Part shown: positions 3,780-52,628 of the stretch, piece by piece
How positions within the stretch are numbered: the first letter of the stretch is position 1
Layout of the letters: every line of letters starts with the position of its first letter
IMG/VR virus record: IMGVR_UViG_3300025875_000034
Location: 1-53,645 of that record
DNA from: a virus
Lineage: Duplodnaviria > Caudoviricetes
Reading direction: 5' to 3' (one strand)
DNA: 53,645 nt
Made by a program: the position numbers and the translations under genes
Notes under the pieces: model-generated
The model's input: only the letters and a program-made list of their open reading frames with translations
Databases searched by the model: none
Told to the model about the DNA's origin: nothing

Positions 3780-5057
3780 TTAAACCGGCTCAACAAGCCT
3801 GCAAGCGTTCATTGCCCGCTGCATTATGGTGAACGATTCGTTGTAGTTGATTTTCACAAAGTATGCCTTGCAAAGCCGGAATACTTCAAACGCAGGCTTT
3901 GCCGACATATTTTCAGTGCTCATTACTGCATCTTGTTTCAGGTATTCGAGTGCGGCTGCAAGTTCGCTGTTTTCTTCCTGCACAAGAACCCATTTCGCAG
4001 AGTTGATTGCAACCGTTTTCAATTCTGCGTTGGTATAGATTGCAGTGAATTCGCTTGCGGAGAAATCAACGTTGCGGCCTTCAATCAGGAGTGAAACGCC
4101 GCCGTTGCTAAAGTTTTGGTCAATATCGAATTTTTGGCCGTTGTAGCGGGAATATGCTGATTCCGGATGAACGTTCACAATTGCTTGCATCTTCTTTGTA
4201 GGCGCAGGCTTTGCCATTGATTCAAGCTGCGCAGCCAAAGGAGCAACAACCGCAACATCTTCCGCAGTCACTACAACGGGCGGGAAATCCGGCAACCAAT
4301 CGGCTTTGTAATACAAGGCGGCGTTTCCCTTGCCTTCCGTTTTGCCTTTCTCCAAATAGCCAAGCCGAACAAGCTTTTCGCAAGACTCGATTGCGGTTGA
4401 ACTCATAACGTGCGAAGATATGCCAGCAACAGACGCAACAACATCTTCATAAACTTCAATCATTTCAGCCGTAGGCGCGTTTGCTGCGTCATAAGCCGCT
4501 GCAAGAATATCAATGTAAGAGTCAATGAAAACCATCTTGTGCAGCCGTGCGCCGCCAAACGGGCCGTTGTAAGTCACTGTCTTTTCACCTACTGCGGAAA
4601 TTGTCAGAGTGCGGCCCGTATTGTCAACAAACGAGAACCCGCGAACCGTCATCTTCTCTGCCTTTTCATATTTGTTCTTTGGCGCTTCAACCTCTGCAAC
4701 CAAAGTTGACAAGAGCAACTGCGCTTCATTGTCATCAATGAACAAATTCTTTTTGATGCGAACCGTAAAGCCGCCCAATTCAGGGAACATTGCGTTTTTC
4801 AAAAGGCGCTTCACAGTTACCGTCTTTGGGCCAACAGAAACAACCGTATCTGTGCAATCTTCCCAAACTTCATAACCCTTTTTTACTTGATGCTGACTTG
4901 TGAATTGCATTCCGGGCTTGATGCTTTCTGCGGCAACGTTGCGGCGTTCTGCGCCCGTCAGGCTGTCAAACTTACGCATTGGAGAATTTACGTATTCGGC
5001 GTAAGCACTAGGATTGCGCTGTTTCAGTGTTTCGAGTTGTGCGGCTGACATTGACAT
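3780..5057 (-). CDS. Multidomain hypothetical protein (425 aa) with repeated beta-barrel-like segments and a possible winged helix
   Basis: TVVSVGPKTVTV and TISAVGEKTVTY repeats; ESCEKLVRLGYLEK; first gene behind a conserved promoter. Confidence 0.75.
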   Translation of the reverse strand: MSMSAAQLETLKQRNPSAYAEYVNSPMRKFDSLTGAERRNVAAESIKPGMQFTSQHQVKKGYEVWEDCTDTVVSVGPKTVTVKRLLKNAMFPELGGFTVRIKKNLFIDDNEAQLLLSTLVAEVEAPKNKYEKAEKMTVRGFSFVDNTGRTLTISAVGEKTVTYNGPFGGARLHKMVFIDSYIDILAAAYDAANAPTAEMIEVYEDVVASVAGISSHVMSSTAIESCEKLVRLGYLEKGKTEGKGNAALYYKADWLPDFPPVVVTAEDVAVVAPLAAQLESMAKPAPTKKMQAIVNVHPESAYSRYNGQKFDIDQNFSNGGVSLLIEGRNVDFSASEFTAIYTNAELKTVAINSAKWVLVQEENSELAAALEYLKQDAVMSTENMSAKPAFEVFRLCKAYFVKINYNESFTIMQRAMNACRLVEPV

Positions 5058-5086
5058 AGCTTGCGGCTTTTCGTTTTTGGTATACC

Positions 5087-5140
5087 CAAAGGTAGGTAAA
5101 AAATAATACGCAAGTCAAGCTTTCCTGAAATTATTTTTCA
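5087..5140 (-). promoter_or_regulatory. Conserved phage promoter cassette (palindrome + TTG-N21-TACCTTTG)
   Basis: Minus strand TGAAAAATAATTTCA-GGAAAGC-TTGACTTGCG...TACCTTTG matches Bacteroidota -33/-7 consensus; near copy at 42336-42389. Confidence 0.8.
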
Positions 5141-8302: not shown

Positions 8303-8587
8303 TTATTTACTTCTGTTCTTGCTGATTTCGAGTTGCAGCGCATAAGCCTCTTGCGTCACTTTCAGCGCTAAACCTCTTGACTTGCGGAAAGCAAGCCTGC
8401 GTTCTACTTGCCGCAATCCGTTTTCCCGGTCCTTTTTTTCTTTGACATACCTTGCGCGTTCTGTGCCAACGTGCCAAACCGCAAGCTGTTGTTCTAAGTC
8501 CTTGTCTGACATAACAGCAAGCGCGGCTCTTGTCGGCTCGATTCGGAAGGCGTACTTGTCCTGATAACTCCTGTATGCAAAACCCAT
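8303..8587 (-). CDS. Basic hypothetical protein (94 aa)
   Basis: AAAGCCGCAAGCA-ATG. Confidence 0.75.
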   Translation of the reverse strand: MGFAYRSYQDKYAFRIEPTRAALAVMSDKDLEQQLAVWHVGTERARYVKEKKDRENGLRQVERRLAFRKSRGLALKVTQEAYALQLEISKNRSK

Positions 8588-8598
8588 TGCTTGCGGCT

Positions 8599-8718
8599 TT
8601 AAAAAAGTGAGACATTGTTGAATTCCCTGCGCTTGGCTATTAAGTAGCAGTAGAACTCCCGTAAACGGTAGTACGCATTGCTGCGCCCGTTGTGGCTTTT
8701 ATGAAGTCTGTGTTTCAT
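8599..8718 (-). CDS. Small protein (39 aa, MKHRLHKSHNGRSNAYYRLREF...), not in ORF track
   Basis: Directly after conserved promoter, AAAGCCGCAAGCA-ATG, TAA abuts next start motif. Confidence 0.6.
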   Translation of the reverse strand: MKHRLHKSHNGRSNAYYRLREFYCYLIAKRREFNNVSLF

Positions 8719-8740: not shown

Positions 8741-8794
8741 CAAATGTCGCAAGAAAAACCGTAAAGTCAAGCATTCCTGAAAATATTTTTCAGG
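8741..8794 (-). promoter_or_regulatory. Conserved phage promoter cassette (palindrome + TTG-N19-GACATTTG)
   Basis: CCTGAAAA-TAT-TTTTCAGG inverted repeat at 8776-8794; same layout as 18782-18834. Confidence 0.75.
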
Positions 8795-9530
8795 ATGCTT
8801 CACCGCCTGCGGCCCTACGCGCATTCTCGACAATCATTGCAGCCTTCATCAACTCCTGCAAATCTTCTGCACTCATTCCCGCCAACGGGCGTTGCGGCTT
8901 AGGAATAACGCTTTCCCCGTCTGACTTCAAATCAATATGCTGAATTGATTTCCAGCTTGCCGGGTCTTGGTTTTGCAGGAAGTATTCAATACTGCGTTGG
9001 TTGGGCGCATATTGCTTTTCAGTCTCCTTTTCAATGATTGACCCTTGATAGGCGAAAAACTTTGTTTCAGGATGCGAAAAGCCGATTGCGGATTTGAACA
9101 GCGCAGCAACAACCGCCGCAACAGCGTTTTGCTTGCCGCCTTTCAACGCATCTTCAATTTCCGGGTATTCTTCATACCAACCTTCAAGCGCGTCTCTCTT
9201 AACGCCTAAAATGTCCGCAATTTCTGCGTTCGTCAGACCCTTTTCTTTCATGCGCCGCAACAGTGTCAATGACTCCTGTATTGGTTCGCCTTTCTCATTA
9301 TAAAAGTATTCTTGCGCCTTGCTCTTTATGCTTGCGGTTTCATACGCCTCTTTTAGCGCAGGAACCGTTGTAAGCCAATTAAAAAGAGTTTTCGGGGAAA
9401 TACCGTAATGCGCAGCAATCTTCGCTTGCGTCCCTAATTCCCGGCAAACCTTGCGGAAATTCTGTAATTCATACGGGTCAAGATTCCCGTCCGCTTCATC
9501 AAAGAAGTCAGATAATTTTGTAGTTGCCAT
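8790..9530 (-). CDS. terS: Terminase small subunit (246 aa, tandem HTH)
   Basis: Two HTH units (QAKIAAHYGISPKTLFNW; NAEIADILGVKRDALEGW) then VVAALFKSAIG...APNQRSIEYFLQNQDPASWK. Confidence 0.8.
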   Translation of the reverse strand: MATTKLSDFFDEADGNLDPYELQNFRKVCRELGTQAKIAAHYGISPKTLFNWLTTVPALKEAYETASIKSKAQEYFYNEKGEPIQESLTLLRRMKEKGLTNAEIADILGVKRDALEGWYEEYPEIEDALKGGKQNAVAAVVAALFKSAIGFSHPETKFFAYQGSIIEKETEKQYAPNQRSIEYFLQNQDPASWKSIQHIDLKSDGESVIPKPQRPLAGMSAEDLQELMKAAMIVENARRAAGGEAS

Positions 9531-10551: not shown

Positions 10552-11304
10552 TTATTGTTTGTTTGGGTAAAGAAGATTGAAAAGAATGCTTTTTGTTCTC
10601 ATTGGGAAATTGCCTTTTAAAATCCATTCCCCAAATCCAACGTCAGACAATACCGGCTTGCCTTTTGCCTTTCCGATATTATAAATTATTTCGCCGTTTT
10701 TATTTTTGGCGAGAACTCCTGCGAAATCAACCCGTTCTGATTGGCCCAACATTTCCGACAATTCAAAAACATTGTCAGGCAAATCAGAATATCTTTCGAG
10801 TTGGCCCGCGAATACTTTAATTGTTGCGGCAACGTCTGCATCTGAACTATGCGCGTTTTCCAATTCGTCTATTCCGCAATAAAACTTGAGCGCGGCTGCG
10901 AGTGTGCGCGGCTCTTTCATTGTGAAGATTCGCAATGTGTCAACAATGCGAGTGTCTGCGGTTGGAAACTCGATACCACAACGGGCGAATTCCTCTGCAA
11001 GAATCGGAACATCAAACTTTTCTATGTTGTGTCCGCACAAGTCGCAATCTGCCAGGAATTGATGCAGACCGTTTGCGAGTTTTTTAAACGTTGGTTGGTC
11101 CGCAACCATTTCGTTTGTGATGCCGTGAACTGCGGTTGTGTCCGCAGGAATAGGAAAGCCCGGATTTATCAACCGGGTCTTTGTCTCAACATCAAAATCA
11201 GGCTTCATCTTGGAAAAGGTTGCCTGTACTATTCGGGCGGTTGCAGTGTCCTTTGATGTGGTTTCCAAATCAAAGATGACAAGCGGACGCAAAAGTTCAA
11301 TCAT
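10552..11304 (-). CDS. DEDDh 3'-5' exonuclease (DnaQ/Pol III epsilon-like, 250 aa)
   Basis: IFDLETT, VHGIT, GHNIEKFD, AHSSDAD motifs. Confidence 0.92.
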   Translation of the reverse strand: MIELLRPLVIFDLETTSKDTATARIVQATFSKMKPDFDVETKTRLINPGFPIPADTTAVHGITNEMVADQPTFKKLANGLHQFLADCDLCGHNIEKFDVPILAEEFARCGIEFPTADTRIVDTLRIFTMKEPRTLAAALKFYCGIDELENAHSSDADVAATIKVFAGQLERYSDLPDNVFELSEMLGQSERVDFAGVLAKNKNGEIIYNIGKAKGKPVLSDVGFGEWILKGNFPMRTKSILFNLLYPNKQ

Positions 11305-11340
11305 TGCTTGCGGCTTTATGTTTATGTAAATGTACTGATT

Positions 11341-12322: not shown

Positions 12323-12774
12323 ATTTTATTATCCGAGTGCAACTGAACATATATTTCATCCGGAATTGATTTTGCATCCGGAATTTCAATACCTCTTTCT
12401 GCGCCCCAACGAATTACACTGTCAAGATAAGTCATCATTTCTTCCTTGGTGAACTTACTTGTTGAAAGCGGGTATTCAATCACTTCGCCGCCAAAATCAA
12501 AGCGGGTTCGCAATCCGAATTTTAATTTAAATATTTCATGCAACTCGCCTATTTCAAATCCGGTTGCATCTGAAAGCGTTTTATACACAACGCCCCAAAG
12601 GTATTTATTTTGCTGATTGCTGCGCAGCGCCGAATCTTTACCGTCAGTTAAATATATTTTGTATTCCGTTCCTGTGTCGAGCTTTTTACCTGACACTACG
12701 GTTCCCAACAATGCGAAGAATTTATTGAATTCGCCTTTTGTCAGATTATTCAGTTTTGCTTTTAAAAGAATCAT
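12319..12774 (-). CDS. ninB: NinB/Orf-family recombination mediator (151 aa)
   Basis: RSNQQNKYLWG...STSKFTKEEMMTYLDSV...GIEIP. Confidence 0.8.
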   Translation of the reverse strand: MILLKAKLNNLTKGEFNKFFALLGTVVSGKKLDTGTEYKIYLTDGKDSALRSNQQNKYLWGVVYKTLSDATGFEIGELHEIFKLKFGLRTRFDFGGEVIEYPLSTSKFTKEEMMTYLDSVIRWGAERGIEIPDAKSIPDEIYVQLHSDNKI

Positions 12775-12786
12775 TGCTTGCGGCTT

Positions 12787-13698
12787 TTATAGGGTTTCAA
12801 AATCAGTTTCAGTTGAAATGCGCTTGCCCGTTATCGGGTTGTAATCTTCAATGAAAGCTTGCCTGCGTTTTGTATATGCCGCAATCGTTGCTTCCTCTGT
12901 TTTGTTGAGCGCAGTTGATGTTGCGAATTTGCCAAGTGCGGCCCGTTCGCGGTCTGTGACGGTTGGCACAAATTCGCGCTTCAAGTATTCCTCAAGCTTA
13001 TTGCGGTTGTCTGCGCTGAACTGAATCTGCATTGACATAAGCTTTCGCCGGTTGTTCTCGTTTCGCTTTTCTTCTTCGCGCTTTATTTGTTCCGCAAGAA
13101 CCTTTTGTTCGCGCTCCTGCGGAGTCCCATACAACCGCAGGCGTTCGGCTTGCAGGAATTGGTGAAGTTCTTCCGGGTCTTTGGGCAATCCCTTTTGGTC
13201 TTGCGGCAAAACGCTTTTATGCGCAGAGTTGGTTTGCTCCCAAATCAAAGACCGTTCTTCAAGCTTTTCATATTTTTCAAACCAAGACAGTATTGTTGGC
13301 CCGTCCAATCTGTTATAGTACAGTTCTCCGAACTTTCCCATCTTTCCATATTTCAGGACAACCGCAATTTCCTCGAAACGCATTGCCCGGCTGCGCTCTG
13401 CAACCAAAGCCGCAATTTCTTTTATTTGGTCTTGGTTTGGCTTGTCAACACTCTTGCCGAAAAAGTTGACAGTTGCTTTTATCATTGTCGCAACAAGCGC
13501 AAAAAGTTCGCCTCTGTTTTCTCGCAGCAACGGTCCTACTTCCGTTCCCTTTTCTATTGCTTCGCGCAATGAAACCCGGTTTACTAATTTCGCAAGTTCA
13601 CCGTTCTTCCAATCTTCTTGTTGCGAGTTTGGATGCTGACTAATAGCCGCTAAAGTCGTTAGCGCTAAACCCGGATTGTATTTCTGTAAATCGTTCAT
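12787..13698 (-). CDS. Putative helicase loader / replication accessory protein (303 aa)
   Basis: Directly after initiator gene (lambda O-P layout); helical GKFGELYYNRLDGPTILSWF segment; function inferred from position. Confidence 0.5.
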   Translation of the reverse strand: MNDLQKYNPGLALTTLAAISQHPNSQQEDWKNGELAKLVNRVSLREAIEKGTEVGPLLRENRGELFALVATMIKATVNFFGKSVDKPNQDQIKEIAALVAERSRAMRFEEIAVVLKYGKMGKFGELYYNRLDGPTILSWFEKYEKLEERSLIWEQTNSAHKSVLPQDQKGLPKDPEELHQFLQAERLRLYGTPQEREQKVLAEQIKREEEKRNENNRRKLMSMQIQFSADNRNKLEEYLKREFVPTVTDRERAALGKFATSTALNKTEEATIAAYTKRRQAFIEDYNPITGKRISTETDFETL

Positions 13699-14674
13699 TG
13701 TGTTTTCTGATTTCAGGAATTATTGTTGTCATCTGATTTGAAAGAATTTTGATGTTCATTTTCGTTTCAAACCATTCCGGAAGCAAATGCCAACCGGCAA
13801 GGATTCCTTCAAACAACTCAAGTGCATCTGTGTAACTCTGTGCAGTTGTGATGCCTTTCAGGTAATCGAGTATTGATTTTAACAATTTACCGTCTGCGGC
13901 ATCAAATTTCGGCGCAACATTATATTTCGCCTTGTATGCCTGAAAGTAAATACCAATTGCGTCTTTGTAAACGGGCGGCGCGTCACTTTTCTTTCTTCCG
14001 GGTGCGGCTCCCTTAATTCGCCCGCCCGTATTTTTTTTTGAGTCAAGCTGCGAGCCTTGCGAGTCAGCAAAGTAATCTTCTGCCTTAGTCTCTGTTAAGT
14101 CTCTTGTATTAGTCTCTGTTAAGGGTTCTGAAATTTTTAAAGGACCGGAACTGAAATTATTTCGGTTCTGGTTCTGAAAATTTTCAAGGACCGGAACTGA
14201 AATTATTTCAGGACCGGAACCCGGTTCTTGAATTTTTTCAGAACCGCGCTGTTTGCGTTGTTTCGCTATTCCGTAAACCTCTGAATACTTCTCGAAACCC
14301 GTTTTTCGCTTTGATAGGAAGTCAACAAAGGATTCAATGAATGCTTCTCGCAGCATCCGGAAATGAACCGTTGCAAAGCCGTTGAAGCGCTTCACAGTCG
14401 TTTCAAGAATCTTTCTGTCATCTTCCAAGAGCTTTGCGGCTCTGCGCACCAAGTATTCAGAAAGGCGAATTTCGGCGTACCAATCTTTGTATTCCTTGGC
14501 AATCCAACCGCCCGGAATCTTTGTCTTGTCAGACCAATAAATTAGTTGCGACAATAAAAGCGCGGTTTCGTGATGACCGTCACAATAATCAACGAACGCA
14601 GTTGAATACGCAAGTTGGTTGTTGTGTCCTGTTAGCTGGCTAATCAGTCCGAAAACCTCTGCTTGTCTTATCAT
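13640..14674 (-). CDS. Replication initiator protein (344 aa, MIRQAEV)
   Basis: N-terminal winged helix (ALLLSQLIYWSDK...WYAEIRLSEYLVRRAAKLL), central repeats encoded by iterons; ATGA overlap with upstream gene. Confidence 0.8.
   Translation of the reverse strand: MIRQAEVFGLISQLTGHNNQLAYSTAFVDYCDGHHETALLLSQLIYWSDKTKIPGGWIAKEYKDWYAEIRLSEYLVRRAAKLLEDDRKILETTVKRFNGFATVHFRMLREAFIESFVDFLSKRKTGFEKYSEVYGIAKQRKQRGSEKIQEPGSGPEIISVPVLENFQNQNRNNFSSGPLKISEPLTETNTRDLTETKAEDYFADSQGSQLDSKKNTGGRIKGAAPGRKKSDAPPVYKDAIGIYFQAYKAKYNVAPKFDAADGKLLKSILDYLKGITTAQSYTDALELFEGILAGWHLLPEWFETKMNIKILSNQMTTIIPEIRKHNERFTEIQSGFSANDFSGY
14085..14241. repeat. Iteron cluster, probable replication origin inside initiator gene
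   Basis: AAGGACCGGAACTGAAATTATTTC at 14140-14163 and 14186-14209 (46-bp period), third GGACCGGAAC at 14211; TTAGTCTCTGTTAAG at 14085 and 14109. Confidence 0.8.
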
Positions 14675-15087
14675 ACAATTTGAACTCCTAAGATTTCCGC
14701 GAATTGGCGAATTTTGGGCGTAAGGCGTTGCCCGGAACCGTTTAGGAAGGCAGAAACCCAACTGACACTGAACCCGTCATTCGCATCTGTGAAGTCCGCA
14801 AGGGTTGTGAATTTGCGCTTGAAGGCAATCTTCATTTCTTGCCGTTTGGCTTCCGGCAAATTCACGCCCGCAATAGGCTTGTTTTCAGTCCCTCTTGCGA
14901 CTTCCTGCATTCGGCGCAGGTTATCTTGATTTGAAACGTAGATGCCGCGCAGAGACTTGGTTGCGGTTGTGTAGTTGAAGCCCGTCAGCATACAAAACCG
15001 GGAAAGGCTATTAAACTTATTCTCGATTGCGGAACGCAGTTCGCCGGGCGTTACTTGCTCAAATGGTTTTTCAAGTACCTGTGTCAT
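14671..15087 (-). CDS. Tandem Cro/XRE-like HTH regulator (138 aa)
   Basis: KFNSLSRFCMLTGFNYTTATKSLRG and KFTTLADFTDANDGFSVSWVSAFLNG. Confidence 0.65.
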   Translation of the reverse strand: MTQVLEKPFEQVTPGELRSAIENKFNSLSRFCMLTGFNYTTATKSLRGIYVSNQDNLRRMQEVARGTENKPIAGVNLPEAKRQEMKIAFKRKFTTLADFTDANDGFSVSWVSAFLNGSGQRLTPKIRQFAEILGVQIV

Positions 15088-18179: not shown

Positions 18180-18527
18180 TTAAGGTTTGATGAATGGATT
18201 GATTGCGGTTCTTATACTGTTGATGTACTCCAAATTTTCAGTCAGGAGAAAGGCTTTTACTTGCTCAAGTTCTTGCAAGGCTCTGTTGCGGGCAATTCGC
18301 AAACGAACTTCGCTGCGGTCTGATTCATCTGTTAATTGGTAATCAACAGCATTCCAACTTGTTTCACCAACTACTGACAATGCGCCTTTCGGCCCTACTT
18401 TTATTTGCAGCCTTGTTCCGTCCGGCAAAATAGCCTGCGTTTTCGTTGTGCGCTCAACCTTATGAATTGAAAAGGCTTTGCCATTGTGGAACTTGGTTAC
18501 TTCCGTTCCTTGTGCTAATTCCTGCAT
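18180..18527 (-). CDS. Hypothetical protein (115 aa)
   Basis: Start motif; KVERTTKTQAIL beta-barrel-like segment. Confidence 0.75.
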   Translation of the reverse strand: MQELAQGTEVTKFHNGKAFSIHKVERTTKTQAILPDGTRLQIKVGPKGALSVVGETSWNAVDYQLTDESDRSEVRLRIARNRALQELEQVKAFLLTENLEYINSIRTAINPFIKP

Positions 18528-18538
18528 TGCTTGCGGCT

Positions 18539-18754
18539 TTAAAGGGTTTTGCGTTCGTTCTGTCTGTCATCTGCAATCAAGGCAATTCGATTCGCCCGAA
18601 TGCGTACTGCGTGAAATGCTGTTACCTCGCCACTTCCGCCGCAAGTCTCGCATTCAAAAGGTTCTTCACCAAGAAACCCGTATGCAGATTTAATTGCGCC
18701 GTATCCGTTGCAGTCCGGGCAAATTACAGGCTCTTTTTCAGTAGGTTCAAACAT
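18539..18754 (-). CDS. DnaJ-type zinc-finger small protein (71 aa, MFEPTEK)
   Basis: CPDCNGYG...CETCGGSG; AAAGCCGCAAGCT-ATG. Confidence 0.75.
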   Translation of the reverse strand: MFEPTEKEPVICPDCNGYGAIKSAYGFLGEEPFECETCGGSGEVTAFHAVRIRANRIALIADDRQNERKTL

Positions 18755-18781: not shown

Positions 18782-18834
18782 CAAATGTCGCAAGAATATA
18801 TTGACAAGTCAAGTGTTCCTGAAATTATTTTTCA
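18782..18834 (-). promoter_or_regulatory. Conserved phage promoter cassette (palindrome + TTG-N20-GACATTTG)
   Basis: TGAAAAATAATTTCAGGAACAC-TTGACTT...TTCTTGCGACATTTGAAACA, near copy of 8741-8794. Confidence 0.78.
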
Positions 18835-18843
18835 CGAAAGAGC

Positions 18844-18876
18844 AAAAACAAGCCCGCCAATGATGACGGGCTTGTT
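18844..18876 (-). terminator. Rho-independent terminator
   Basis: AACAAGCCCG-N10-CGGGCTTGTT with minus-strand T tract. Confidence 0.75.
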
Positions 18877-18883
18877 CCTCTTG

Positions 18884-20905
18884 CTACTCCGCTTTTTCGC
18901 TTGCGGCTTTCTTGTTTGCCTCAAGCCGTTTCACGTCCCGCCCGTTTGCCACATCAAAGACATACCCGATTTCACAACCAACTGCGGCTGCAATTTCGCG
19001 GGCTTGCTCCTTTGAAAGCTTTTCGCCTTCCGCAAGCTTTGGCAACAGTTCCTTGATACGTGCGTTGCGCGGCGCAGCGCCTTTTTCCTTGCCCGTTGCG
19101 TACTCCTTTTTGCCTCTGTCAGTCAGAGTAACAACGCCTTTATCATCAACCGCTGCAAAGCCTGAATTGATGACTTTGAAGATTGCGTTGTGTAGCTGTT
19201 GCCGCTGCATTTCGTGCGTCTCGACAAAGTAATTTGTCAGGCTTGCTTTCGTGACGGTGAAGCCGCCTTTTTCCTCTTGCTGCAAGTATTCAACAATTTC
19301 CTTGCGAATGTTGCCGGTTCGTGGAACTGCGGTATTTTCCCGCAAGACAATGTTGCCTTCATTGCGCGAAATCTTTTCCATTGTAACCAACCTATCAAGC
19401 GCCTCTTTCGCGGCTTCTGCGGTTGTTCCGTGCGGCATAATGGTTTCATCAAGCAGGCGGCTTTCAACAACTGTGTTGCCCGCTGCAAGGTGTTCTGTGA
19501 TGACTCCTAAAAGATGCCTGCGCAGAGTCAGTTGCGAAGGAAGCGCAGCAACTTCAACTTTCTCTTTTTTCTCCTTTTTGGGCTTCTCGACTTTGGGCGC
19601 TTTTTCCTTTTTTGGCTTTGGCTCTTTCTTGGCTTTTGGCTCCTTTTTGGCTTTCTCCTTTTTGGGTTTGGCTTCCGGGTCAAAGTCTCTCGGAACGGGT
19701 TTCAACTCAAGCTTTTTGTTTGACTTCGCGGGCTTTGGGTTGTTCTTGCGGAACTCTCTGATAAGCGCTGCGCCTATACCCGTAAGCGTTCCAACGAAAG
19801 CGGGCGTTGCGTCTCCCTGCAACTCGAATTCTCCATTGACCGCCTGCGGAAAGTTGCGTTGCAGCAATACAAGCGCATTCGCATTCCGCAAGCCTTTCGC
19901 CTTTCCGTTGCCGTTTATATCCTGCAAGCTTTCCATTGCGGAAATGATGATTTCCGTAATAGCAAACGCCTCTTGCGCCTCTTGTGCGGGTTCAGCGTAT
20001 GGTGCGGGCGTTAGTTGGAAAAGCGGTGCATCTGCTTGCGGCTCTGCCTTTTCTTCTGGCTTCTCGTATTCGTGGTAACTCACTGCATCAAAAGGCGTGT
20101 TGATTTGACGAACAACGCCTTCAAGCCCGGATTCCGCAAGCGCTTTGTCATTCTTTTCAGACCAATGCTGAATAATTTCTTTGCGAGTCTGCGGCCCGTC
20201 AGGCGTTTCAATAACTTTCATTTCGTATGTCTCATTTCCGCTGTTTGGCGAAACCTCAACGTCAGTGCGGACAACGAACCCGCCTGTTTCGTTGGAATGC
20301 TGCAAGGCAAACGGTTCGCCGGGCGTATCTGCATAACCATACTGCAACCCGGCTTCCGTTGCCTTGACAAGCCCGTTGCCCGTCTCAATCAAGCCGCGCT
20401 TTTTGAGCGAAGTGAAACAGCCGACAACTTTTGCTTTCGAGTCTTGCAGCGCATCAACAACTTGGTCGGGCGTTGCGCCCGCTTCACCGTCAAGACCTTT
20501 TGCGTGTTCCTGCAAGTACATCAATATACCGCCCGCCAACAAAGACAACGGCGCTTGTTTTGGAGCCTCTGACGGGCTTTCAGCCGTTGCGGCAACCGCA
20601 GCATCAACAGCGGCAACGAACGGCGCAACAGCGGCTTCCTGAATGCCTAATTCCTTGGCTACTTCTGCAACCTCTTGCGGCTTTGCTTTTGCGGCTTTCA
20701 GGTTTGCGGTTGCGGTTTTGCAGACCTCCGCAACAGTGCCTTCATAATCACTGTAATTCAGATTGTGAAATACCTTGCCCGCCTTTACTCGAATGCCTGT
20801 TTCAGTTTTGGTGCGCAGCTCTGCGGCAACCTGTTTCCCATCAACCCGAACGTAAATTTGCGTTCCGGCTTCAACGTTCTCAATTGGAGTGATTTTGCTT
20901 TTCAT
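18884..20905 (-). CDS. Large multi-winged-helix DNA-binding protein with Lys/Glu/Pro H1-like tract (673 aa)
   Basis: Three wHTH-like units (FTSLKKRGLIE; ALDRLVTMEKISR; AIFKVINSGFAAV...LTDRG), C-terminal HTH, KPKKEKAKKEPKAKKEPKPKKEK tract. Confidence 0.65.
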   Translation of the reverse strand: MKSKITPIENVEAGTQIYVRVDGKQVAAELRTKTETGIRVKAGKVFHNLNYSDYEGTVAEVCKTATANLKAAKAKPQEVAEVAKELGIQEAAVAPFVAAVDAAVAATAESPSEAPKQAPLSLLAGGILMYLQEHAKGLDGEAGATPDQVVDALQDSKAKVVGCFTSLKKRGLIETGNGLVKATEAGLQYGYADTPGEPFALQHSNETGGFVVRTDVEVSPNSGNETYEMKVIETPDGPQTRKEIIQHWSEKNDKALAESGLEGVVRQINTPFDAVSYHEYEKPEEKAEPQADAPLFQLTPAPYAEPAQEAQEAFAITEIIISAMESLQDINGNGKAKGLRNANALVLLQRNFPQAVNGEFELQGDATPAFVGTLTGIGAALIREFRKNNPKPAKSNKKLELKPVPRDFDPEAKPKKEKAKKEPKAKKEPKPKKEKAPKVEKPKKEKKEKVEVAALPSQLTLRRHLLGVITEHLAAGNTVVESRLLDETIMPHGTTAEAAKEALDRLVTMEKISRNEGNIVLRENTAVPRTGNIRKEIVEYLQQEEKGGFTVTKASLTNYFVETHEMQRQQLHNAIFKVINSGFAAVDDKGVVTLTDRGKKEYATGKEKGAAPRNARIKELLPKLAEGEKLSKEQAREIAAAVGCEIGYVFDVANGRDVKRLEANKKAASEKAE

Positions 20906-20931
20906 GTTGGCTTTCTTTGAAATGGAAATTG

Positions 20932-20994
20932 CTTGCGGTGAATTCGTATGCAATTATACGAAAGCCGCAAGCAAAGTTCCAAGAAAGCCGCAAG
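20932..20994 (-). promoter_or_regulatory. Putative promoter overlapped by tandem GAAAGCCGCAAG sites
   Basis: TTG-N21-TATAATTG on minus strand (one mismatch to -7 box); 12-bp direct repeats at 20960-20971 and 20983-20994. Confidence 0.55.
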
Positions 20995-21010
20995 AAATAT
21001 TTATTTCAAT

Positions 21011-22135
21011 CTATACCGCAGGCTCGACAACGCCTGCGTTGTTTATGCGCCAAGCTGCGCCGTTGGGCGAACGAATAGTTGTGACGGGCGCAACGTAGGG
21101 AATGACGGTAACAGGATAAGGTGCGGCGTTTGCAGGCCAAACCGGATTGGGATTCGCTGCGGTTCCGTACAACGTCACTCCGATTCCATCATTGGGCGCA
21201 ACCGTCTCGAATCCATCTGCACAGGTTACAACCGTTCCGTATAGATTTATGCCTTGTCCGCCGCCGCCTTGAATGCGAACGTTGTTCAGGGAGCCGCCGT
21301 TATACGTCCGGTTTACTGTGCCGTAAAGGGACAAAAAACCGTTTGATAAGTGCAAGTCATAAATTGCAGAGTCCCTTGCGAAATCAAGGCTGAACCCATT
21401 CATTGCAACAGAGTTGTTGTTGCCTTGAATCGAATTGCCGTAACGCAGGCTAGTTGAACCGTTCATTGTACCGTGACCCATCACAGTAACCCGGCCCAAA
21501 TAGTTAGGTAGAACCCCAACAACCCCGTTCAGGAATTCAGCACTGTAAATATTACCCGTTGCGCTTGAGCCGTAAAAGCGCGGAACCTTGCCCGGAAGGT
21601 TGTCAACTTTTGTATTGAGCGCATCAACTCTTGCTGACAGTTTCTTTAAAGCCGCAAGAGTTGCAACGTCAAGTTCCTCGAAAAACTCACCTACAACCGG
21701 GTAATTCGGATACACAAGTTGAACGTCTTTGATGCAGCGCAGAAAGCCCGCTTCCAAGTCATCAACAATTGCGTCTTTGGGAACATTTATAGGAATCCAA
21801 TTACCCTCTGAATCTTTCTCAAATGATTCAACATAGATGTAATTGAACCCGCCTAATTTGTACGCCTCAACTTCAAACGTGTTTGCAGTTGACGCAATCT
21901 GCAACTTGCGGGTTAAATAACTGTTGCCAATAATTCCGAAACTAACAAGCCCGGAACCGTCAACAGCTTCTTTGCCGAATGGATAAACAGGGGTCCAAAT
22001 AGGCGCTTTTGTCTTGCGGCGAAAAACAGCCATATACAAGGAAGGGTCAAAGCCGGGAATTGTAAATTCGCGGGCTTCCTCGTTTACCTCTGTTTCAGGC
22101 GGCAATGCAAGCCAAGTATCAAGTTCGTATGACAT
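21011..22135 (-). CDS. Putative tail fibre / receptor-binding protein (374 aa)
   Basis: End of tail operon; short coiled coil then Gly/Asn-rich beta region. Confidence 0.55.
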   Translation of the reverse strand: MSYELDTWLALPPETEVNEEAREFTIPGFDPSLYMAVFRRKTKAPIWTPVYPFGKEAVDGSGLVSFGIIGNSYLTRKLQIASTANTFEVEAYKLGGFNYIYVESFEKDSEGNWIPINVPKDAIVDDLEAGFLRCIKDVQLVYPNYPVVGEFFEELDVATLAALKKLSARVDALNTKVDNLPGKVPRFYGSSATGNIYSAEFLNGVVGVLPNYLGRVTVMGHGTMNGSTSLRYGNSIQGNNNSVAMNGFSLDFARDSAIYDLHLSNGFLSLYGTVNRTYNGGSLNNVRIQGGGGQGINLYGTVVTCADGFETVAPNDGIGVTLYGTAANPNPVWPANAAPYPVTVIPYVAPVTTIRSPNGAAWRINNAGVVEPAV

Positions 22136-40876: not shown

Positions 40877-40954
40877 GAGCAAGGATGCTGTTGGTTTGGC
40901 GCTTGGGCCACCATATCCCAAGACCTCAAGGGTTCGACTCCCTTACTTGCTCCA
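40877..40954 (+). tRNA. Atypical tRNA-like gene, initiator-like, 9-nt anticodon loop
   Basis: GAGCAAG/CTTGCTC acceptor, GCTG-TTGGTT-TGGC D arm, CTTGGG-CCACCATAT-CCCAAG anticodon arm, AAGGG-TTCGACT-CCCTT T arm. Confidence 0.75.
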
Positions 40955-41093: not shown

Positions 41094-42299
41094 CTACAAT
41101 ACGCCTGTTTCGATTCGCTGCGGCGTGTAGCTTGGTTCAGGCAAACAAGGCGAGTCAACATCATTGAAGTCAATGTTGATTGCGGCAATGTCCTTTTCGA
41201 GTTGCCGCGCAAGTCCGCTTGTGTAGAACTCCCGATTGTCAAGCAGGTAATTCGACATTTCCCGCGCTTTCTGCGCCTGTGCGTTGCCTTCCTGATTATG
41301 CGCAAACATTGTCAAAATGGAAACCGCAATTTGCTTTTGCAGTGCAGCGGCAAATGCGTTTTTATTTCGCAAGATGAATTGCGTATAATCACAATTCACA
41401 GACAAGCTTAAATTAAGCCCGTTGTTCGTGTTATAGGCGTAATCATTGTATGATGTATCCCAAAGCCTGCGTTCGTCTTGTAGGCGGGCGGAATCAACGC
41501 AAAAAGGATGAATCTTGACGAACCGGCTCCAAGCATGAAACATCTTGTTCGTCTCTGTGTCGCAGGTTCCGCAGGCAATGGTGAAATCTTTTTCCCTGCG
41601 TACTACTTGGCCCGCAATGTCATCTTCATAATATCCGAAATAATACGAACCCGCAAGCGCCGTATCTGCGCCCGCTGTTGCCTTGCTGTCAAATGCGAGT
41701 TCGGCTGCATTCAATTCAGCCCAATCGAAAGAACCCGTTGATACGGTAGGCGCATCAAATATCTTGATTGGCTCTGCGGCTGAGGAATGATACAGGTAGT
41801 ATTTCAATTGCGGGTTCGGCGCAGTTGTTTGCAGTCCGACTCGATTAATTACCGCAAGAATGTCTCTGTATGGCAATAACTCGATTTCAACGCCTCTGAA
41901 CCGGCCTTGCTTAATCAGTCTGTCATTGATGTTGCCTGCGCCTCTGTAAAGATGAATGTCTTGCAGGATGCTTTTTGCGCCACCGTCAGACAGCTTGCGA
42001 GTAACAACAACAGCATTCACTACTTGAGCAACTGCGCCTTCAATGGTGTTCTTTAGGTACTCATTGAATACGCGCTTCACCGCTTGCTGCGGCGTTTCAT
42101 CTTGCGAAAGCTTGAATTGCTTAGGCATACATGAAACAATGTTTTCAGCGCTAATCAGTGACGGTGAAACGTCAGTGACATACAAGCCGGTTTTGCTTGC
42201 GGCTAATTCGGGCAACACGTCAGGAAAATCCGGGTGCGTGTTCTGCCTGAACCCAACCAAACCGGCGAAACCTAAGACAACAGCGGGCAAACGGTACAT
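41094..42299 (-). CDS. Putative head-tail adaptor / head completion protein (401 aa)
   Basis: First minus-strand gene after major capsid; function from synteny. Confidence 0.55.
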   Translation of the reverse strand: MYRLPAVVLGFAGLVGFRQNTHPDFPDVLPELAASKTGLYVTDVSPSLISAENIVSCMPKQFKLSQDETPQQAVKRVFNEYLKNTIEGAVAQVVNAVVVTRKLSDGGAKSILQDIHLYRGAGNINDRLIKQGRFRGVEIELLPYRDILAVINRVGLQTTAPNPQLKYYLYHSSAAEPIKIFDAPTVSTGSFDWAELNAAELAFDSKATAGADTALAGSYYFGYYEDDIAGQVVRREKDFTIACGTCDTETNKMFHAWSRFVKIHPFCVDSARLQDERRLWDTSYNDYAYNTNNGLNLSLSVNCDYTQFILRNKNAFAAALQKQIAVSILTMFAHNQEGNAQAQKAREMSNYLLDNREFYTSGLARQLEKDIAAINIDFNDVDSPCLPEPSYTPQRIETGVL

Positions 42300-42335
42300 A
42301 TATTTTGTGGCTTTATTGCCCGCAATCGGGCTTTG

Positions 42336-42389
42336 TGAAAAATATTTTCAGGAACTCTTGACTTGCGTGTTTTTATTTCTGTACCTTTG
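42336..42389 (+). promoter_or_regulatory. Conserved phage promoter cassette driving inverted moron
   Basis: TGAAAAATATTTTCA-GGAACTC-TTGACTTGCG...TACCTTTG; near copy of 5087-5140. Confidence 0.8.
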
Positions 42390-42419
42390 GGCATACCAAA
42401 ACGGAAAAAGCCCAACACT

Positions 42420-42731
42420 ATGACTTCTTACATCAAAATGCCTGCCGCCTGCTTTTCATCTTTTGAAGCCGCAAACATTCTCGCAAGCTTCAACATCAAG
42501 CCGGAAGTTCAGTATTCCAAAAACTACGCAGTCAAAATTTCTGACAGTGTGACTCTAAGCGTGTTCATTGGTGAAAGCTACATGACTATCACTGCGCAGC
42601 GCGGTACTTGGGAAATGATAAAGTCATACATTACCAAGACAAGCGAAGTTGAAACCGCAATAAACCAAATCAACAAGCGCTGCGCTATGTTTGTAGAAGG
42701 CTTTCAACCAATAGAAAGCAATGCCTTATAA
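42420..42731 (+). CDS. Hypothetical protein, moron gene 1 (103 aa, MTSYIKMP)
   Basis: ATG 30 nt after the -7 box. Confidence 0.8.
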   Translation: MTSYIKMPAACFSSFEAANILASFNIKPEVQYSKNYAVKISDSVTLSVFIGESYMTITAQRGTWEMIKSYITKTSEVETAINQINKRCAMFVEGFQPIESNAL

Positions 42732-43083
42732 GCCAACTTTCAAGATGCAGGATAAGCGCAACGGTGGGGGTTTTCCCTACCGGGGCCACCGCATAGTAAA
42801 AAAGCACGGCTTGGTAAGTTGGCATCATACAACGTACTATCACCCGGACCTAGAAGCCTACGAGGGAGACACAGTTGAAGTCAACTTTGACGGTAGCTGC
42901 GTTTGGTCGGACGGTATCACAGTTTATGAGGCTCAAAGGAATTGGGTTAAAATATGCAGCATCAAAGACAGTCTTGAGGGACGCGCAGCAACAATCAAGC
43001 AGGAGTTAGAAGATAAACGGCTTGCGGCTATACAAGAGGCGCAATATAGACTTGACAACCCAAAGGAAAGCCCGCCTGAATGA
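42721..43083 (+). CDS. Moron gene 2, stand-alone Mu-transposase C-terminal-like domain (120 aa)
   Basis: RIVKKHGLVSWHHTTYYHPDLEAYEGDTVEVNFD...ITVY resembles the Mu-transpos_C pattern. Confidence 0.55.
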   Translation: MPYKPTFKMQDKRNGGGFPYRGHRIVKKHGLVSWHHTTYYHPDLEAYEGDTVEVNFDGSCVWSDGITVYEAQRNWVKICSIKDSLEGRAATIKQELEDKRLAAIQEAQYRLDNPKESPPE

Positions 43084-48960: not shown

Positions 48961-48990
48961 CAAATATAATTTTTTAATTCTCGGTTTCAA
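48961..48990 (-). promoter_or_regulatory. Bacteroidota sigma-A-like promoter for head operon
   Basis: TTG-N19-TATATTTG on minus strand. Confidence 0.6.
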
Positions 48991-50503
48991 TCCGCTTGCG
49001 TTCTTCTGTAAAGAAATTTTGCAAAGTGTCCTGAACCAACAAGTCAACTTCATCATCATGCTTTGAAGCCGGGAAACCTGCGTACTGTTTAATTGTGACG
49101 GGAATCCAAGGATTTGATGAATCTTCTTCAACAAGAACAACTCGACTAGATAACCAAGTAGGAATGCAAGCCATTGCCCTAGTCACTTTGTCTTTGTCAT
49201 ACATAGTTGTTCCCATAATTTTGGGATACTCGTATTTCATCACATTTAATTTTGTCCGCAAGTAAATACTTTGAACAATCGAAATGCCGTTTGCTTTCGG
49301 TTCTACTTCAATAATTGAATTATGGTTGTAGCCGTAACGCATAACGAATTGCGGTATATACTCAAGCAACCGTTCGTAATTCATATACACTGACTCCGAA
49401 CGCCTGACGTATTGAATATTATCTACAAAACAGCTTGCGTATAGTGCGGTTGGGTCATTGCTGTCAGCATCTTCCGTAAATGCACCGTCAATCTTGAATT
49501 TCCAAGCAACGAATTTGTTTTTCGTTCGCCGCAAGAATTCCTCCCAATTAATACGGGGGAATCTATCAGTTGGAATAATATTACCCGCAAGCGGTTGCGG
49601 ATTCTGTTGATACAGGCTGTTAAAGGTTCGTTCTCCGCTTATGCGCTTTTTATCAAGCAGGAGTTGAACTGAATGACGTTCGGGCCAAAGCGCCTCGCCT
49701 ATTTGGCGCGGGTCGAGTGCAGTTGGCGGTTCTTCCTTGATTGCGGGATATTTTATAATTGTCCATTCAGGCTCTAAACCGTCTCTGATACGCTTTGCAT
49801 CTTCCGCTTCAAGCCTTCCTCCAAGGTCATCTTCGTGCCAACGGGTTTGCAGCAAGAGTTCTTGTGAACCGTTGTGCAATCGAGTCTTGAAAACGTCTGT
49901 GTACCAATTCCAAACGTTGTCACGCATCCTTTCTGACTCCGCTTCAATCCGGTCCTTTAGCGGGTCATCAATAATGCCAATATCAACGGGCGTTCCCGTC
50001 AGTGCAGTACCTATGCCGACATTCTTGAAGAAACCCTTGCGGTTTACAATTTCAAATATGTCAGAGTTCTTGAGGTACGTTGGCCTGCCTGCCTTATGGT
50101 TGGCCCAAACTTCGCGCCCGTTCAATCTTGTTCCGGGAAATAGCTGCAAGTATTCCGGGCTTTCAATGATGCGCTGACAAGCTCTGTTGAAGCCAGAAGA
50201 AAGGGAATCGGAGTATGAACAAACCGCAATCTTTAAATCCGGGTTGATGCCTAACGCATAAGCAGGAAACAGGATTGATGACAACTGACTTTTGCCGTGC
50301 TGCGGTGGAATATATATTGCGAGTTTTTTTATTATTCCCTTTAAAAACAGGTCTAACGCCGTGCAAACCGCTATATGATGAATTGCGGCTTCGTAATTCG
50401 GCATTACAAACTTTGCAAACGACAACATACCTCGCCGCGCAAGTTCCTCTCTTATTTGCTCAAGAGTAGGTAAGTTTTCAATAAGCTTGTCTAATTCTCG
50501 CAT
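48974..50503 (-). CDS. terL: Terminase large subunit (509 aa)
   Basis: IPPQHGKSQ Walker A, GIIDDP Walker B, QTRWHEDDL, LYQQNP, FPASKHDDEVD. Confidence 0.95.
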   Translation of the reverse strand: MRELDKLIENLPTLEQIREELARRGMLSFAKFVMPNYEAAIHHIAVCTALDLFLKGIIKKLAIYIPPQHGKSQLSSILFPAYALGINPDLKIAVCSYSDSLSSGFNRACQRIIESPEYLQLFPGTRLNGREVWANHKAGRPTYLKNSDIFEIVNRKGFFKNVGIGTALTGTPVDIGIIDDPLKDRIEAESERMRDNVWNWYTDVFKTRLHNGSQELLLQTRWHEDDLGGRLEAEDAKRIRDGLEPEWTIIKYPAIKEEPPTALDPRQIGEALWPERHSVQLLLDKKRISGERTFNSLYQQNPQPLAGNIIPTDRFPRINWEEFLRRTKNKFVAWKFKIDGAFTEDADSNDPTALYASCFVDNIQYVRRSESVYMNYERLLEYIPQFVMRYGYNHNSIIEVEPKANGISIVQSIYLRTKLNVMKYEYPKIMGTTMYDKDKVTRAMACIPTWLSSRVVLVEEDSSNPWIPVTIKQYAGFPASKHDDEVDLLVQDTLQNFFTEERKRIETEN

Positions 50504-52202: not shown

Positions 52203-52628
52203 TTAAGCTCTGTATGATTGCGGATAAATTTGCTCTAAGTGCTGCGCGGCTTGCCGGGAAATGATGCAGCCGTTCCACTCGAAAGACAAGCCGTAATGCG
52301 TCATCTTTGTAATGTCGCAAGTGAAGGCGTTGTTGCGCTGAACGCCTCTGTATAGCCTTTCTTCACCATTTACTGACAAGTGAACGCCTCTTTCGTCATT
52401 GGCTAAATACTTATACTCAACATACTCTTGCGGCTTTCCAACTTCATCTTGCGGCTTTTCTTCGCTTACTTCAAACGACTTCACCAACGCCTGCGCATAT
52501 TGGGTTTGGCTTCCTCTTGCGGCAATCGAAACGCCGCCTTGAAATTCCCAATTGTCATTCTTGTGTTCAGCAACAGCCTTTTCAAACAAGTCAAGGTCTG
52601 TTGATTCAATTACTTTGTAAGTTGTCAT
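52203..52628 (-). CDS. DUF1737-like domain protein (141 aa, MTTYKV)
   Basis: YKVIES...FEKAVAEH...WEFQGGVSI...YAQALVK; start motif. Confidence 0.65.
   Translation of the reverse strand: MTTYKVIESTDLDLFEKAVAEHKNDNWEFQGGVSIAARGSQTQYAQALVKSFEVSEEKPQDEVGKPQEYVEYKYLANDERGVHLSVNGEERLYRGVQRNNAFTCDITKMTHYGLSFEWNGCIISRQAAQHLEQIYPQSYRA

Follow-up and report, generated by a model that had tools for sequence, protein, structure and literature searches.

Why should a phage gene whose protein has no detectable relatives carry, just upstream of its start, two reversed copies of a sequence that the same phage places directly before many of its other gene starts? The window analysed here, the whole 53,645-nucleotide stretch of a virus of the Caudoviricetes, contains such a gene on its minus strand, encoding a product of 673 residues (counted from the ATG of ORF 20905..18884 (-)) that we refer to as P0001. 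Our analyses lead us to propose, with a probability of about 0.4, that P0001 is an orphan nucleic-acid-binding protein whose translation start may be gated by a palindrome of ~95 nt. The coordinates of the locus are collected in Table 1.

Table 1. Features in and around the P0001 gene, ordered by position in the window
Feature	Coordinates	Strand	Basis or remark
Conserved promoter-like 20-mer	18806..18825	minus	one of four copies; opens the next transcription unit right after the terminator
Intrinsic terminator-like hairpin	18844..18879	minus	16-pair stem then T run, directly 3' of the stop codon
CDS of orphan protein P0001 (stop codon included)	18884..20905	minus	ORF and translation, highest-class coding score
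C-terminal helix-turn-helix-like segment, residues 629-673	18887..19021	minus	sequence pattern only
Winged helix-turn-helix (wHTH)-like segment 3, residues about 548-625	19031..19264	minus	sub-threshold Mrr_N and DUF4364 matches
wHTH-like segment 2, residues about 481-546	19268..19465	minus	pattern by eye only, no family match
Tandem 17-18-nt repeats encoding the KPKKEK/AKKEPK tract, residues about 413-446	19568..19669	minus	
wHTH-like segment 1, residues about 119-190	20336..20551	minus	sub-threshold MarR_2 and phrog_2440 matches
Densest CCGCAA cluster of the genome	20675..20733		5 copies in 60 bp, 5' coding part of P0001
Predicted RNA hairpin, ~95-nt imperfect palindrome	20900..20997	minus	covers promoter-like site, leader, start region and AUG
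Degenerate start element GAAAGCCAAC	20906..20915	minus	directly before the ATG of P0001
Sense motif copy CCGCAAGCAA in leader	20929..20938	minus	perfect 10-nt inverted repeat with 20965-20974
Promoter-like site TTGGAA-18-TATAAT	20953..20982	minus	consensus match only
Antisense motif copy 2, GAAAGCCGCAAG	20960..20971	plus	exact match
Antisense motif copy 1, GAAAGCCGCAAG	20983..20994	plus	exact match

The premise of the original prediction, that the hexamer CCGCAA is over-represented in this phage, is borne out: it occurs 307 times where 55.4 copies are expected (5.5-fold, with none of 100 shuffles reaching 307), exceeds 14-fold what base composition predicts and, whichever strand or reading frame is considered, stands out more than any other hexamer. 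The excess persists under synonymous shuffling, with 155 sense copies against 46 and 112 antisense copies against 42, and 45 of the 57 Pro-Gln pairs are written CCGCAA where 27% would be expected. The motif acts at the DNA or RNA level and not through codon usage. In a maximal-order Markov analysis the excess of the hexamer is accounted for by words of fewer letters (CGCA, CAA and CCG among them), so that a discrete 6-bp site is not established. Copies are Poisson-dispersed, lacking clustering, periodicity or helical phasing, and vary little in density from module to module (5.1-7.8 per kb). The P0001 gene as a whole holds 14 copies and is not enriched (p 0.27); the densest cluster of the genome falls within it and is only suggestive, since ~0.135 such clusters are expected genome-wide. 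Searched as an 11-mer in 401 sampled Bacteroidota genomes, the motif showed no enrichment (no genome had more than 20 copies, close to what controls gave). As a 16-mer it gave 89 single matches in IMG/VR, none motif-rich, and at least 120 single matches in genome contigs, none motif-rich among the matches listed. Neither P0001 nor enrichment of the motif was found in any other record examined. Because the motif is real, acts on DNA or RNA and is not enriched in the 401 Bacteroidota genomes, some phage-specific reader or process for it is plausible.

The same motif is associated with gene starts. CCGCA ends 0-8 nt before the start in 27 of 47 non-structural genes, as against 3 of 25 structural genes and 15 of 214 control internal ATGs, an association that is somewhat inflated because some gene starts were chosen with the motif in view. 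A spacing of 0 nt was counted 16 times and one of 4 nt 6 times. The 11-mer is present in 23 copies, 17 of them sense, and 19 of 33 sense 10-mers abut curated gene starts. The resulting element, AAAGCCGCAA(G), is 10-11 nt long, asymmetric and free of a Shine-Dalgarno (SD) core, and it often overlaps the ATG by one base. An SD core precedes only 3 of the 72 genes of this phage, and Bacteroidota ribosomes ignore SD sequences, according to two studies (PMC7797042, PMC13000453). The start-associated sequences (SAS) of Cluster K mycobacteriophages (PMC3203893) are similar: they too are short and asymmetric, lie a few nucleotides before start codons, are confined to non-structural genes, keep the same orientation apart from rare exceptions, do not occur in the host, and have no known reader. 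SAS differ in that they are 13 bp long and include an SD core, and that study does not describe for them what we see here, namely over-representation of the 6-nt core throughout coding DNA on both strands. The P0001 gene itself lacks the full CCGCA element. Since the sense motif is start-associated, an antisense copy upstream of a gene is what an anti-start sequence would look like.

Upstream of P0001 we recovered the features on which the original prediction had drawn: two exact copies of GAAAGCCGCAAG, at 20960 and 20983, reversed with respect to the start-associated copies, 23 bp apart and straddling the TTGGAA hexamer of a putative -33 box, together with an inverted copy near 20932, which extends to a perfect 10-nt inverted repeat. 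This 12-mer occurs seven times in the genome, three times on the plus strand, and the chance that two of those three fall within 25 bp is 0.0028. The inverted repeats are nested, with one of 10 nt that is perfect, one of 13 nt that is 92% complementary and one of 22 nt that is 82% complementary, and a perfect 7-nt repeat surrounds the -10 box; the reversed motif copies make up the left arms of the ~95-nt imperfect palindrome. RNA spanning 21015..20895 is predicted to fold with a minimum free energy of -41.4 kcal/mol (z -6.4), a stability that none of 200 shuffles attained, and the hairpin ranks fourth among 2677 folding windows after adjustment for GC content. In the predicted fold, the partner of antisense copy 1 is AGAAAGCC..CA.G in the start region, with the A and G of the AUG among the paired bases; antisense copy 2 and three flanking bases pair with the sense copy in the leader, and TATAAT occupies the tip of the hairpin, partly in the apical stem and partly in its loop. 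For a leader that begins at the putative internal start (20946..20876), the predicted energy is only -1.4 kcal/mol, equalled or bettered by 193 of 200 shuffles. Rfam returned no family at gathering scores.

These predictions suggest a model in which the origin of the transcript would decide whether P0001 is translated. Transcripts reading through from the tail genes would form the -41 kcal/mol hairpin and bury the translation start, antisense copy 1 pairing with the gene's own degenerate start element and AUG and antisense copy 2 with the leader copy CCGCAAGCAA, while the apical stem would carry TATAAT. Transcripts from the internal promoter-like site would lack the left arms and present an open, unstructured start region, and P0001 would be made only from its own promoter. 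Nucleic-acid binding, use of an internal promoter, read-through and gating are all steps that we infer. Since the reversed copies form the arms predicted to hide the start region, the model would explain them at the RNA level without a protein reader. All stem pairs are Watson-Crick, however, and the palindrome could therefore equally be a symmetric DNA operator, the pairing being the same for RNA and DNA. Antisense-then-sense motif pairs at short distance are not enriched in the genome, and hairpin gating by antisense copies is thus not a general device of this phage.

The transposase of IS10 offers a natural parallel, as fold-back of read-through transcripts inhibits its translation and only transcripts from its own promoter are translated. 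The sequence that pairs with the start region, by prediction in the case of P0001, lies upstream in both and is confined to transcripts initiated outside the unit. In the predicted hairpin of the P0001 leader, the arms differ from those of IS10 in being copies of a genome-wide phage motif, the stem has ~40 pairs and the -10 hexamer sits at the apex.

How the gene is transcribed bears directly on this model. The locus had been described as a stand-alone unit with its own promoter and terminator, and the terminator half of that description stands: the P0001 gene is the last ORF upstream of a terminator that closes a long structural gene block. The promoter half fares less well. The site TTGGAA-18-TATAAT is a consensus match at chance level, given that the 3-kb region contains two such sites against 1.8 expected, and no minus-strand terminator was found between the P0001 gene and the tail-fibre-like gene that precedes it. 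None of the four conserved promoter-like repeats of the phage contains a full motif copy, and the promoter-like 19-mer gave 12 matches in IMG/VR, all unrelated. A single sequencing run, of DNA from a groundwater metagenome and possibly the origin of the sequence, contains the stretch, and no RNA run is listed.

Judged from its sequence, P0001 is most likely a nucleic-acid-binding protein that uses three winged-helix-like units plus a helix-turn-helix at its C terminus, connected by a disordered Lys/Glu/Pro repeat linker. The weak family matches to the wHTH-like segments all fall in winged-helix DNA-binding families, at phrog_2440 (E 0.0014, sub-threshold), Mrr_N (E 0.012-0.022; 16.1 bits vs a cut-off of 29.5), DUF4364 (E 0.043; 14.1 bits vs 26.9) and MarR_2 (E 0.079; 13.6 bits vs 27). 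The language-model neighbours of P0001 segments (ESM Atlas, 0.79-0.83) are also winged-helix proteins, at the level of leads. The KPKKEK repeats noted in the original prediction are real, rich in Lys, Pro and Glu, encoded by tandem 17-18-nt units and set within a Lys-rich stretch at residues about 405-455. An NCBIfam match over this Lys/Glu tract (TIGR04526, 21.8 bits vs a cut-off of 150) was rejected as compositional, and a single-sequence AlphaFold2 model of the protein was unusable (mean pLDDT 37.4, pTM 0.20).

Searches for relatives of P0001 were uniformly negative. None emerged from word-indexed searches, either with the whole protein among proteins of similar length or with residues 479-673 among shorter proteins, from an exhaustive phmmer search of 1.84 billion representatives, from IMG/VR and metagenome contigs, or from tblastn against GenBank phages; PDB sequences gave nothing at E<=10. 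The exact sequence is absent from a 15-billion-protein collection and present in the ESM Atlas. As for the phage itself, its capsid relatives are all Bacteroidota phages. Its portal protein has relatives at three IMG/VR loci (23-30% identity), none of them motif-rich and none with a neighbouring ATPase; the ATPase has no close relative in IMG/VR and one metagenome locus at 26% identity. Cellulophaga phage phi12:1 has no comparable large gene before its ATPase. The genome also contains a transposase-like ORF on the plus strand and a tRNA-like element at 40877-40952.

The strongest competitor to hairpin gating, which we nonetheless consider rather doubtful, is that P0001 recognises AAAGCCGCAA(G), in DNA or in mRNA, as a site-specific regulator and controls its own gene through a symmetric operator, in the manner of a stoperator-type repressor or of a translational repressor of early genes. 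The sense bias of the 11-mer and the abutment of sense 10-mers on curated starts would suit such a protein. So would the position of the only intergenic antisense copies, which form their 23-bp direct repeat at the P0001 promoter-like site (P 0.0028-0.014), in a palindrome that overlaps both the -35 and the -10 hexamer. The lack of enrichment in the 401 Bacteroidota genomes makes a phage-encoded reader plausible, and P0001 has several putative DNA-reading heads. Cluster A mycobacteriophages provide a precedent in repressors of the L5 gp71 type, whose targets are more than 20 asymmetric 13-mers that are oriented with transcription and lie in short intergenic spaces and at a promoter (PMC9283540), showing that many scattered sites can be served by a single phage protein. 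Those repressors, by the same account, are ~180-aa monomers of temperate phages with a helix-turn-helix and a second domain; P0001 is a 673-aa orphan candidate, its promoter copies are reversed, and PHROGs, Pfam, NCBIfam, PDB and phage records yielded no gp71 homologue or other homologue of it. No integrase was found among the proteins scanned, a subset of the ORFs. The phage has other candidates for DNA binding, in a TerS-like helix-turn-helix protein (8790-9530), a second helix-turn-helix protein (14671-15087) and a Zn-ribbon Q-like protein (18539-18754), and the conserved promoter-like repeats are without the full motif. Finally, the hairpin accounts for the antisense copies without invoking a protein.

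It is unlikely that P0001 has nothing to do with the motif and is a late or accessory protein (one that associates with the virion, binds DNA ends or counters defences, say), with the palindrome serving as an element of RNA processing or stability. Its gene follows the tail-fibre-like gene with no terminator between and is followed by the terminator of the block, and a lack of relatives, as seen for P0001, is common among fast-evolving accessory genes. Long stems are typical RNA processing sites, and that of the leader palindrome would fit one. Against this, the weak matches and language-model neighbours of the wHTH-like segments all point to winged-helix DNA-binding proteins, and the precision with which the predicted hairpin takes in the start codon region speaks for translation control rather than for processing alone.

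We think it decidedly unlikely that the motif is a private word (core CCGCAA, full form AAAGCCGCAAG) recurring every ~175 bp and doubling as a non-SD start signal, with P0001 as a putative phage-encoded reader by which the phage labels its DNA or mRNA as self, autoregulated through a palindromic array of that word at its promoter. Least probable among the readings of the motif is the one originally put forward, an abundant H1-like chromatin protein that coats the genome in a sequence-directed way through its ~300 CCGCAA sites for protection or organisation. The even, strand- and frame-independent excess of the hexamer beyond synonymous shuffling, its use in Pro-Gln pairs and the Lys-rich repeat tract are what such a coat would call for, and P0001 does share with linker histone H1 and bacterial H1-like Lys-repeat proteins the combination of winged-helix-like units and a Lys/Pro-rich repeat tract. 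The histone-like identity found no support, however. The Pfam Linker_histone profile matched neither the whole protein (E<=1) nor any of its segments (E<=5); among nucleoid-protein families there was only, when segments were scanned, a weak match to Bac_DNA_binding (E 0.082) at residues about 618-643, just upstream of the C-terminal helix-turn-helix-like segment. The protein is neutral (pI 7.2; 98 Lys and Arg, 98 Asp and Glu), two of its three wHTH-like segments are acidic, and its Lys tract is internal, ~50 residues long and rich in Glu. A length of 673 residues would be unusually great for a protein that coats DNA stoichiometrically; the motif copies lack phasing and are not enriched in the P0001 gene, and the Markov analysis assigns the hexamer excess to shorter words. 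Phage architectural proteins that bind the genome, such as phi29 p6 and SPO1 TF1, are small, abundant and basic. P0001 resembles them in being phage-encoded and a proposed organiser of its own DNA, and differs in being large, neutral and multi-domain. Altogether, P0001 looks like a phage regulator rather than a histone-like coat. A role as replication initiator acting on iterons was rejected because another gene of the phage, at 13640-14674, encodes an O-like/DnaD-like initiator (phrog_9773 E 4e-15, phrog_6493 E 7e-16).

If P0001 does read the motif, it would represent a new family of phage genome readers, one with no relatives in ~1.8 billion protein clusters. Either way the motif system, enriched in no other record examined, is the more remarkable feature, and P0001 is only one candidate component of it. 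If hairpin gating is correct, this phage would have turned its gene-start element around and put it to use as an anti-start sequence. Gating would then also provide indirect evidence that the start element acts on mRNA in a host lineage that ignores SD sequences and in which the selection of start sites is still poorly understood.

We favor, at a probability of roughly 0.4, a model in which the orphan gene is a separately controlled regulator gene gated by a leader hairpin that would hide its translation start in read-through transcripts. The open reading frame, the tandem antisense motif copies upstream of it and the inverted copy between them and the gene are all present as originally described. 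The original prediction also gave the gene its own terminator and promoter. The former holds: a hairpin with a T run lies directly 3' of the stop codon, and a promoter-like 20-mer starts twenty bases past it. This conserved element (ATTTCAGGAAnnCTTGACTT, extended by TTCTTGCGACATTTGAAACA at two of its sites) occurs four times, and its copies probably represent a single class of promoters read by the host. The hairpin and this next promoter-like copy make the orphan gene the last ORF of the packaging/structural block, and no terminator was found between the tail genes and the orphan gene. The promoter is less secure. The 105-nt spacer upstream of the ATG contains a TTGGAA-18-TATAAT match, which differs from the four-copy element, and the number of such matches in the region is at chance level. 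The TTGGAA hexamer is flanked by two exact copies of GAAAGCCGCAAG (20960 and 20983), both in antisense orientation relative to the gene. This 12-mer has only seven copies in the genome, and the chance that two of its three plus-strand copies would lie 25 bp or less apart is 0.0028 (0.014 for the 11-mer). A second close pair of 11-mers, 21 bp apart and in sense orientation, lies in a coding region at 52427-52458 (-), both copies being translated as Lys-Pro-Gln.

Nested inverted repeats make the spacer an imperfect palindrome. As RNA (21015..20895) it is predicted to fold at -41.4 kcal/mol, compared with -20.2 +/- 3.3 for shuffled sequences (z -6.4; 0 of 200 as stable), and the GC-adjusted stability of the region ranks fourth among 2677 windows. 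In the predicted fold the start region contributes AGAAAGCC, CA and G(AAA), two bases of the AUG among them, to a pairing with the antisense copy farther from the gene; the sense leader copy is base-paired to the nearer antisense copy, and TATAAT sits at the apex of the hairpin. RNA beginning just past TATAAT (20946..20876), by comparison, is near-unstructured (-1.4 kcal/mol; 193 of 200 shuffled sequences are at least as stable). The predicted hairpin, the unstructured internal-start RNA and the lack of an intervening terminator together form the layout expected under gating. We envision a scenario in which the hairpin keeps the orphan start untranslated in read-through transcripts from the tail genes, such that translation would occur only from transcripts made at the gene's own promoter-like site. 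The masked sequence would consist of copies of the element that this phage places before gene starts, one full and one degenerate, and reversed motif copies would be needed because these are the copies to be masked. The IS10 transposase gene follows the same logic, its read-through RNA being silent and its own-promoter RNA translated. The palindrome could also be a symmetric DNA operator, a reading that is in keeping with the exclusively Watson-Crick pairs of the stem and compatible with an RNA hairpin. The key argument for autoregulation by a motif-binding protein, drawn from the promoter copies, now faces a protein-free rival.

Coordinates of features at the orphan locus, of motif and promoter-like elements, and of domain matches in the orphan protein
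Feature	Position	Strand	Detail
Orphan ORF	20905..18884	-	673 aa counted from ATG
Hairpin and T run	18879..18844	-	16 pairs; directly 3' of orphan stop
Promoter-like 20-mer, copies 1-3	5112-5131, 8764-8783, 18806-18825	-	0.06 expected by chance (four copies)
Promoter-like 20-mer, copy 4	42345-42364	+	
Sense motif copy in orphan leader	20938..20929	-	
Inverted repeat, 10 nt	20929-20938 vs 20965-20974		perfect
Inverted repeat, 13 nt	20909-20921 vs 20977-20989		92% complementarity
Inverted repeat, 22 nt	20917-20938 vs 20988-21009		82%
Inverted repeat, 7 nt	around TATAAT		perfect
Start element, examples	18527-18540, 12774-12787, 11304-11317, 8587-8600, 5057-5070		
phrog_2440 'transcriptional regulator'	residues 127-190		E 0.0014, sub-threshold
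Other winged-helix matches			MarR_2 E 0.079; DUF4364 E 0.043; Mrr_N E 0.012-0.022; all sub-threshold

The gene is a true orphan: its protein had no relative in a word-indexed search, in an exhaustive phmmer search of 1.84 billion cluster representatives, or in IMG/VR, metagenome contigs, GenBank phages and PDB sequences. Family scans returned sub-threshold matches only, those in the putative domains all being to winged-helix families, and ESM Atlas neighbours of residues 479-673 belong to DUF1627, DsrD, TrmB, MarR and IclR-type clusters, at scores (0.79-0.83) that the tool itself grades as leads only. The three wHTH units and C-terminal HTH first proposed are plausible from the sequence pattern and the consistency of these weak matches, although none passed the cut-off and AlphaFold2, run without an alignment, gave a pLDDT of 37; nucleic-acid-binding domains are probable. 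A fair rival by analogy is that the protein is a stoperator-type regulator. In the part of the literature available on that system, one phage repressor acts at more than 20 asymmetric sites oriented with transcription (PMC9283540), and the pattern of motif sites in our phage matches it; however, a matching protein, a temperate lifestyle and site binding are lacking or putative here. That the protein reads the 10-11-mer is possible but doubtful. The predicted Lys/Pro repeat tract is real, its Lys/Pro/Glu stretch being made of tandem 17-18-nt units. The H1-like label finds no support: the scans gave no Linker_histone match and the protein, at pI 7.2 and with 98 K+R and 98 D+E, is neutral; two of its three wHTH-like segments are acidic and its Lys tract is rich in Glu. 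The protein falls outside the H1 family and bears little resemblance to a stoichiometric basic coat.

CCGCAA is the top hexamer outlier of the genome, with 307 copies where 55 would be expected; the plus strand carries 122 of them and the minus strand 185. Its excess within genes over synonymous-codon shuffles, in sense (155 vs 46) and antisense (112 vs 42) orientation and in all three frames, and the spelling of 45 of 57 Pro-Gln pairs as CCGCAA (27% expected) place the excess at the level of nucleic acid rather than protein sequence. Under a maximal-order Markov model the count is explained by shorter over-represented words, for example CGCA, CAA and CCG, so a discrete 6-bp site is only putative. 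Copies are evenly dense (5.1-7.8 per kb by module) with Poisson spacing, and no helical phasing was found among them. The densest cluster of the genome, five copies in 60 bp, is in the 5' part of the orphan gene, which is only suggestive given 0.135 such clusters expected; across the whole gene there was no enrichment (p 0.27). Nor was the motif enriched in three distant relatives of the phage or among the 16-mer matches listed (89 in IMG/VR and at least 120 in genomes), and none of 401 evenly drawn Bacteroidota genomes had more than 20 copies of it, a number close to the control count. A genome coat over the CCGCAA sites, as first proposed, appears very unlikely. A role as replication initiator is unlikely because a separate O-like/DnaD-like protein is encoded at 13640-14674 (-). 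That initiator gene has one CCGCAA in 1035 nt versus ~6 expected, and a predicted fold inside it (14126-14245) is the genome's third strongest; these features make it, and especially the fold, a candidate replication origin.

The phage record is complete at 53,645 bp, with direct terminal repeats (an exact 127 bp common to both ends), and its convincing genes are all on the minus strand. Genes for a large terminase, portal, capsid proteins, a 1518-aa tape measure and tail proteins give it the look of a siphovirus. A capsid protein search matched 76 phage records at 33-35% identity, and the named relatives all infect Bacteroidota (Flavobacterium, Bacteroides, Parabacteroides, Croceibacter, Elizabethkingia and Alistipes). 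A groundwater metagenome, the sole public sequencing run containing this DNA, may be its source. When genes are compared with their synonymous shuffles, several words prove strongly avoided (CTGG 18 vs 158, CCAG 12 vs 112, CGAT 43 vs 169, TTAA 129 vs 288, GTTAA 21 vs 73, CGACG 1 vs 54, CGATG 2 vs 51), in what looks like restriction-site avoidance. A small-terminase-like protein with extra HTH motifs (phrog_309, E 1e-34) is encoded at 8790-9530 (-), in the non-structural region ~40 kb away from the large terminase gene (48974-50503). The only plausible plus-strand cassette (42043-43083), within an 826-nt gap separating minus-strand genes, has three ORFs of 120-126 aa, one weakly transposase-like (phrog_310, E 1e-5), and has the plus-strand promoter-like copy in front of it. 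A gap of 273 nt contains a tRNA-like element at 40877-40952 (+) that scores 31 bits, below the Rfam gathering score, and drew no ARAGORN call; its acceptor stem and T arm are complete and its anticodon loop odd, and it may be what remains of a tRNA or of an attachment site.

Of 72 genes, only 3 are preceded by a Shine-Dalgarno core. This rarity is in line with a Bacteroidia host: according to the parts of two reports available, the ribosomes of such bacteria leave these sites unused (PMC7797042, PMC13000453). The extended motif AAAGCCGCAA(G) shows a strong association with gene starts, where 19 of 33 sense 10-mers are located. At 27 of 47 non-structural starts CCGCA lies upstream with its end 0-8 nt away, versus 3 of 25 structural starts and 15 of 214 control internal ATGs; some of the starts were chosen with the motif in view. 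At most non-structural starts either AAAGCCGCA adjoins the ATG or 2-5 nt separate the ATG from an upstream AAAGCCGCAAG(C)(A/T); the CCGCA-bearing element frequently shares one base with the ATG and often occupies the entire interval from the upstream stop (TAA) to the start. It looks like a phage-private, non-SD start signal. Its AGCCGCA core is complementary, with one G-U pair, to UGUGGCU in the 3' region of the 16S rRNA from one Draconibacterium genome (locus L223), a stretch a few bases 5' of the anti-SD that we take to be the 3' strand of helix 45; the chance of such a 7-nt match close to the 3' end is around a few percent and Draconibacterium may not be the host, so we treat it as a lead only. 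Among described elements, the start-associated sequence found in Cluster K mycobacteriophages comes closest (PMC3203893). As far as the available part of that account goes, both elements are confined to non-structural genes, just before start codons and in a single orientation. The motif system itself merits separate study.
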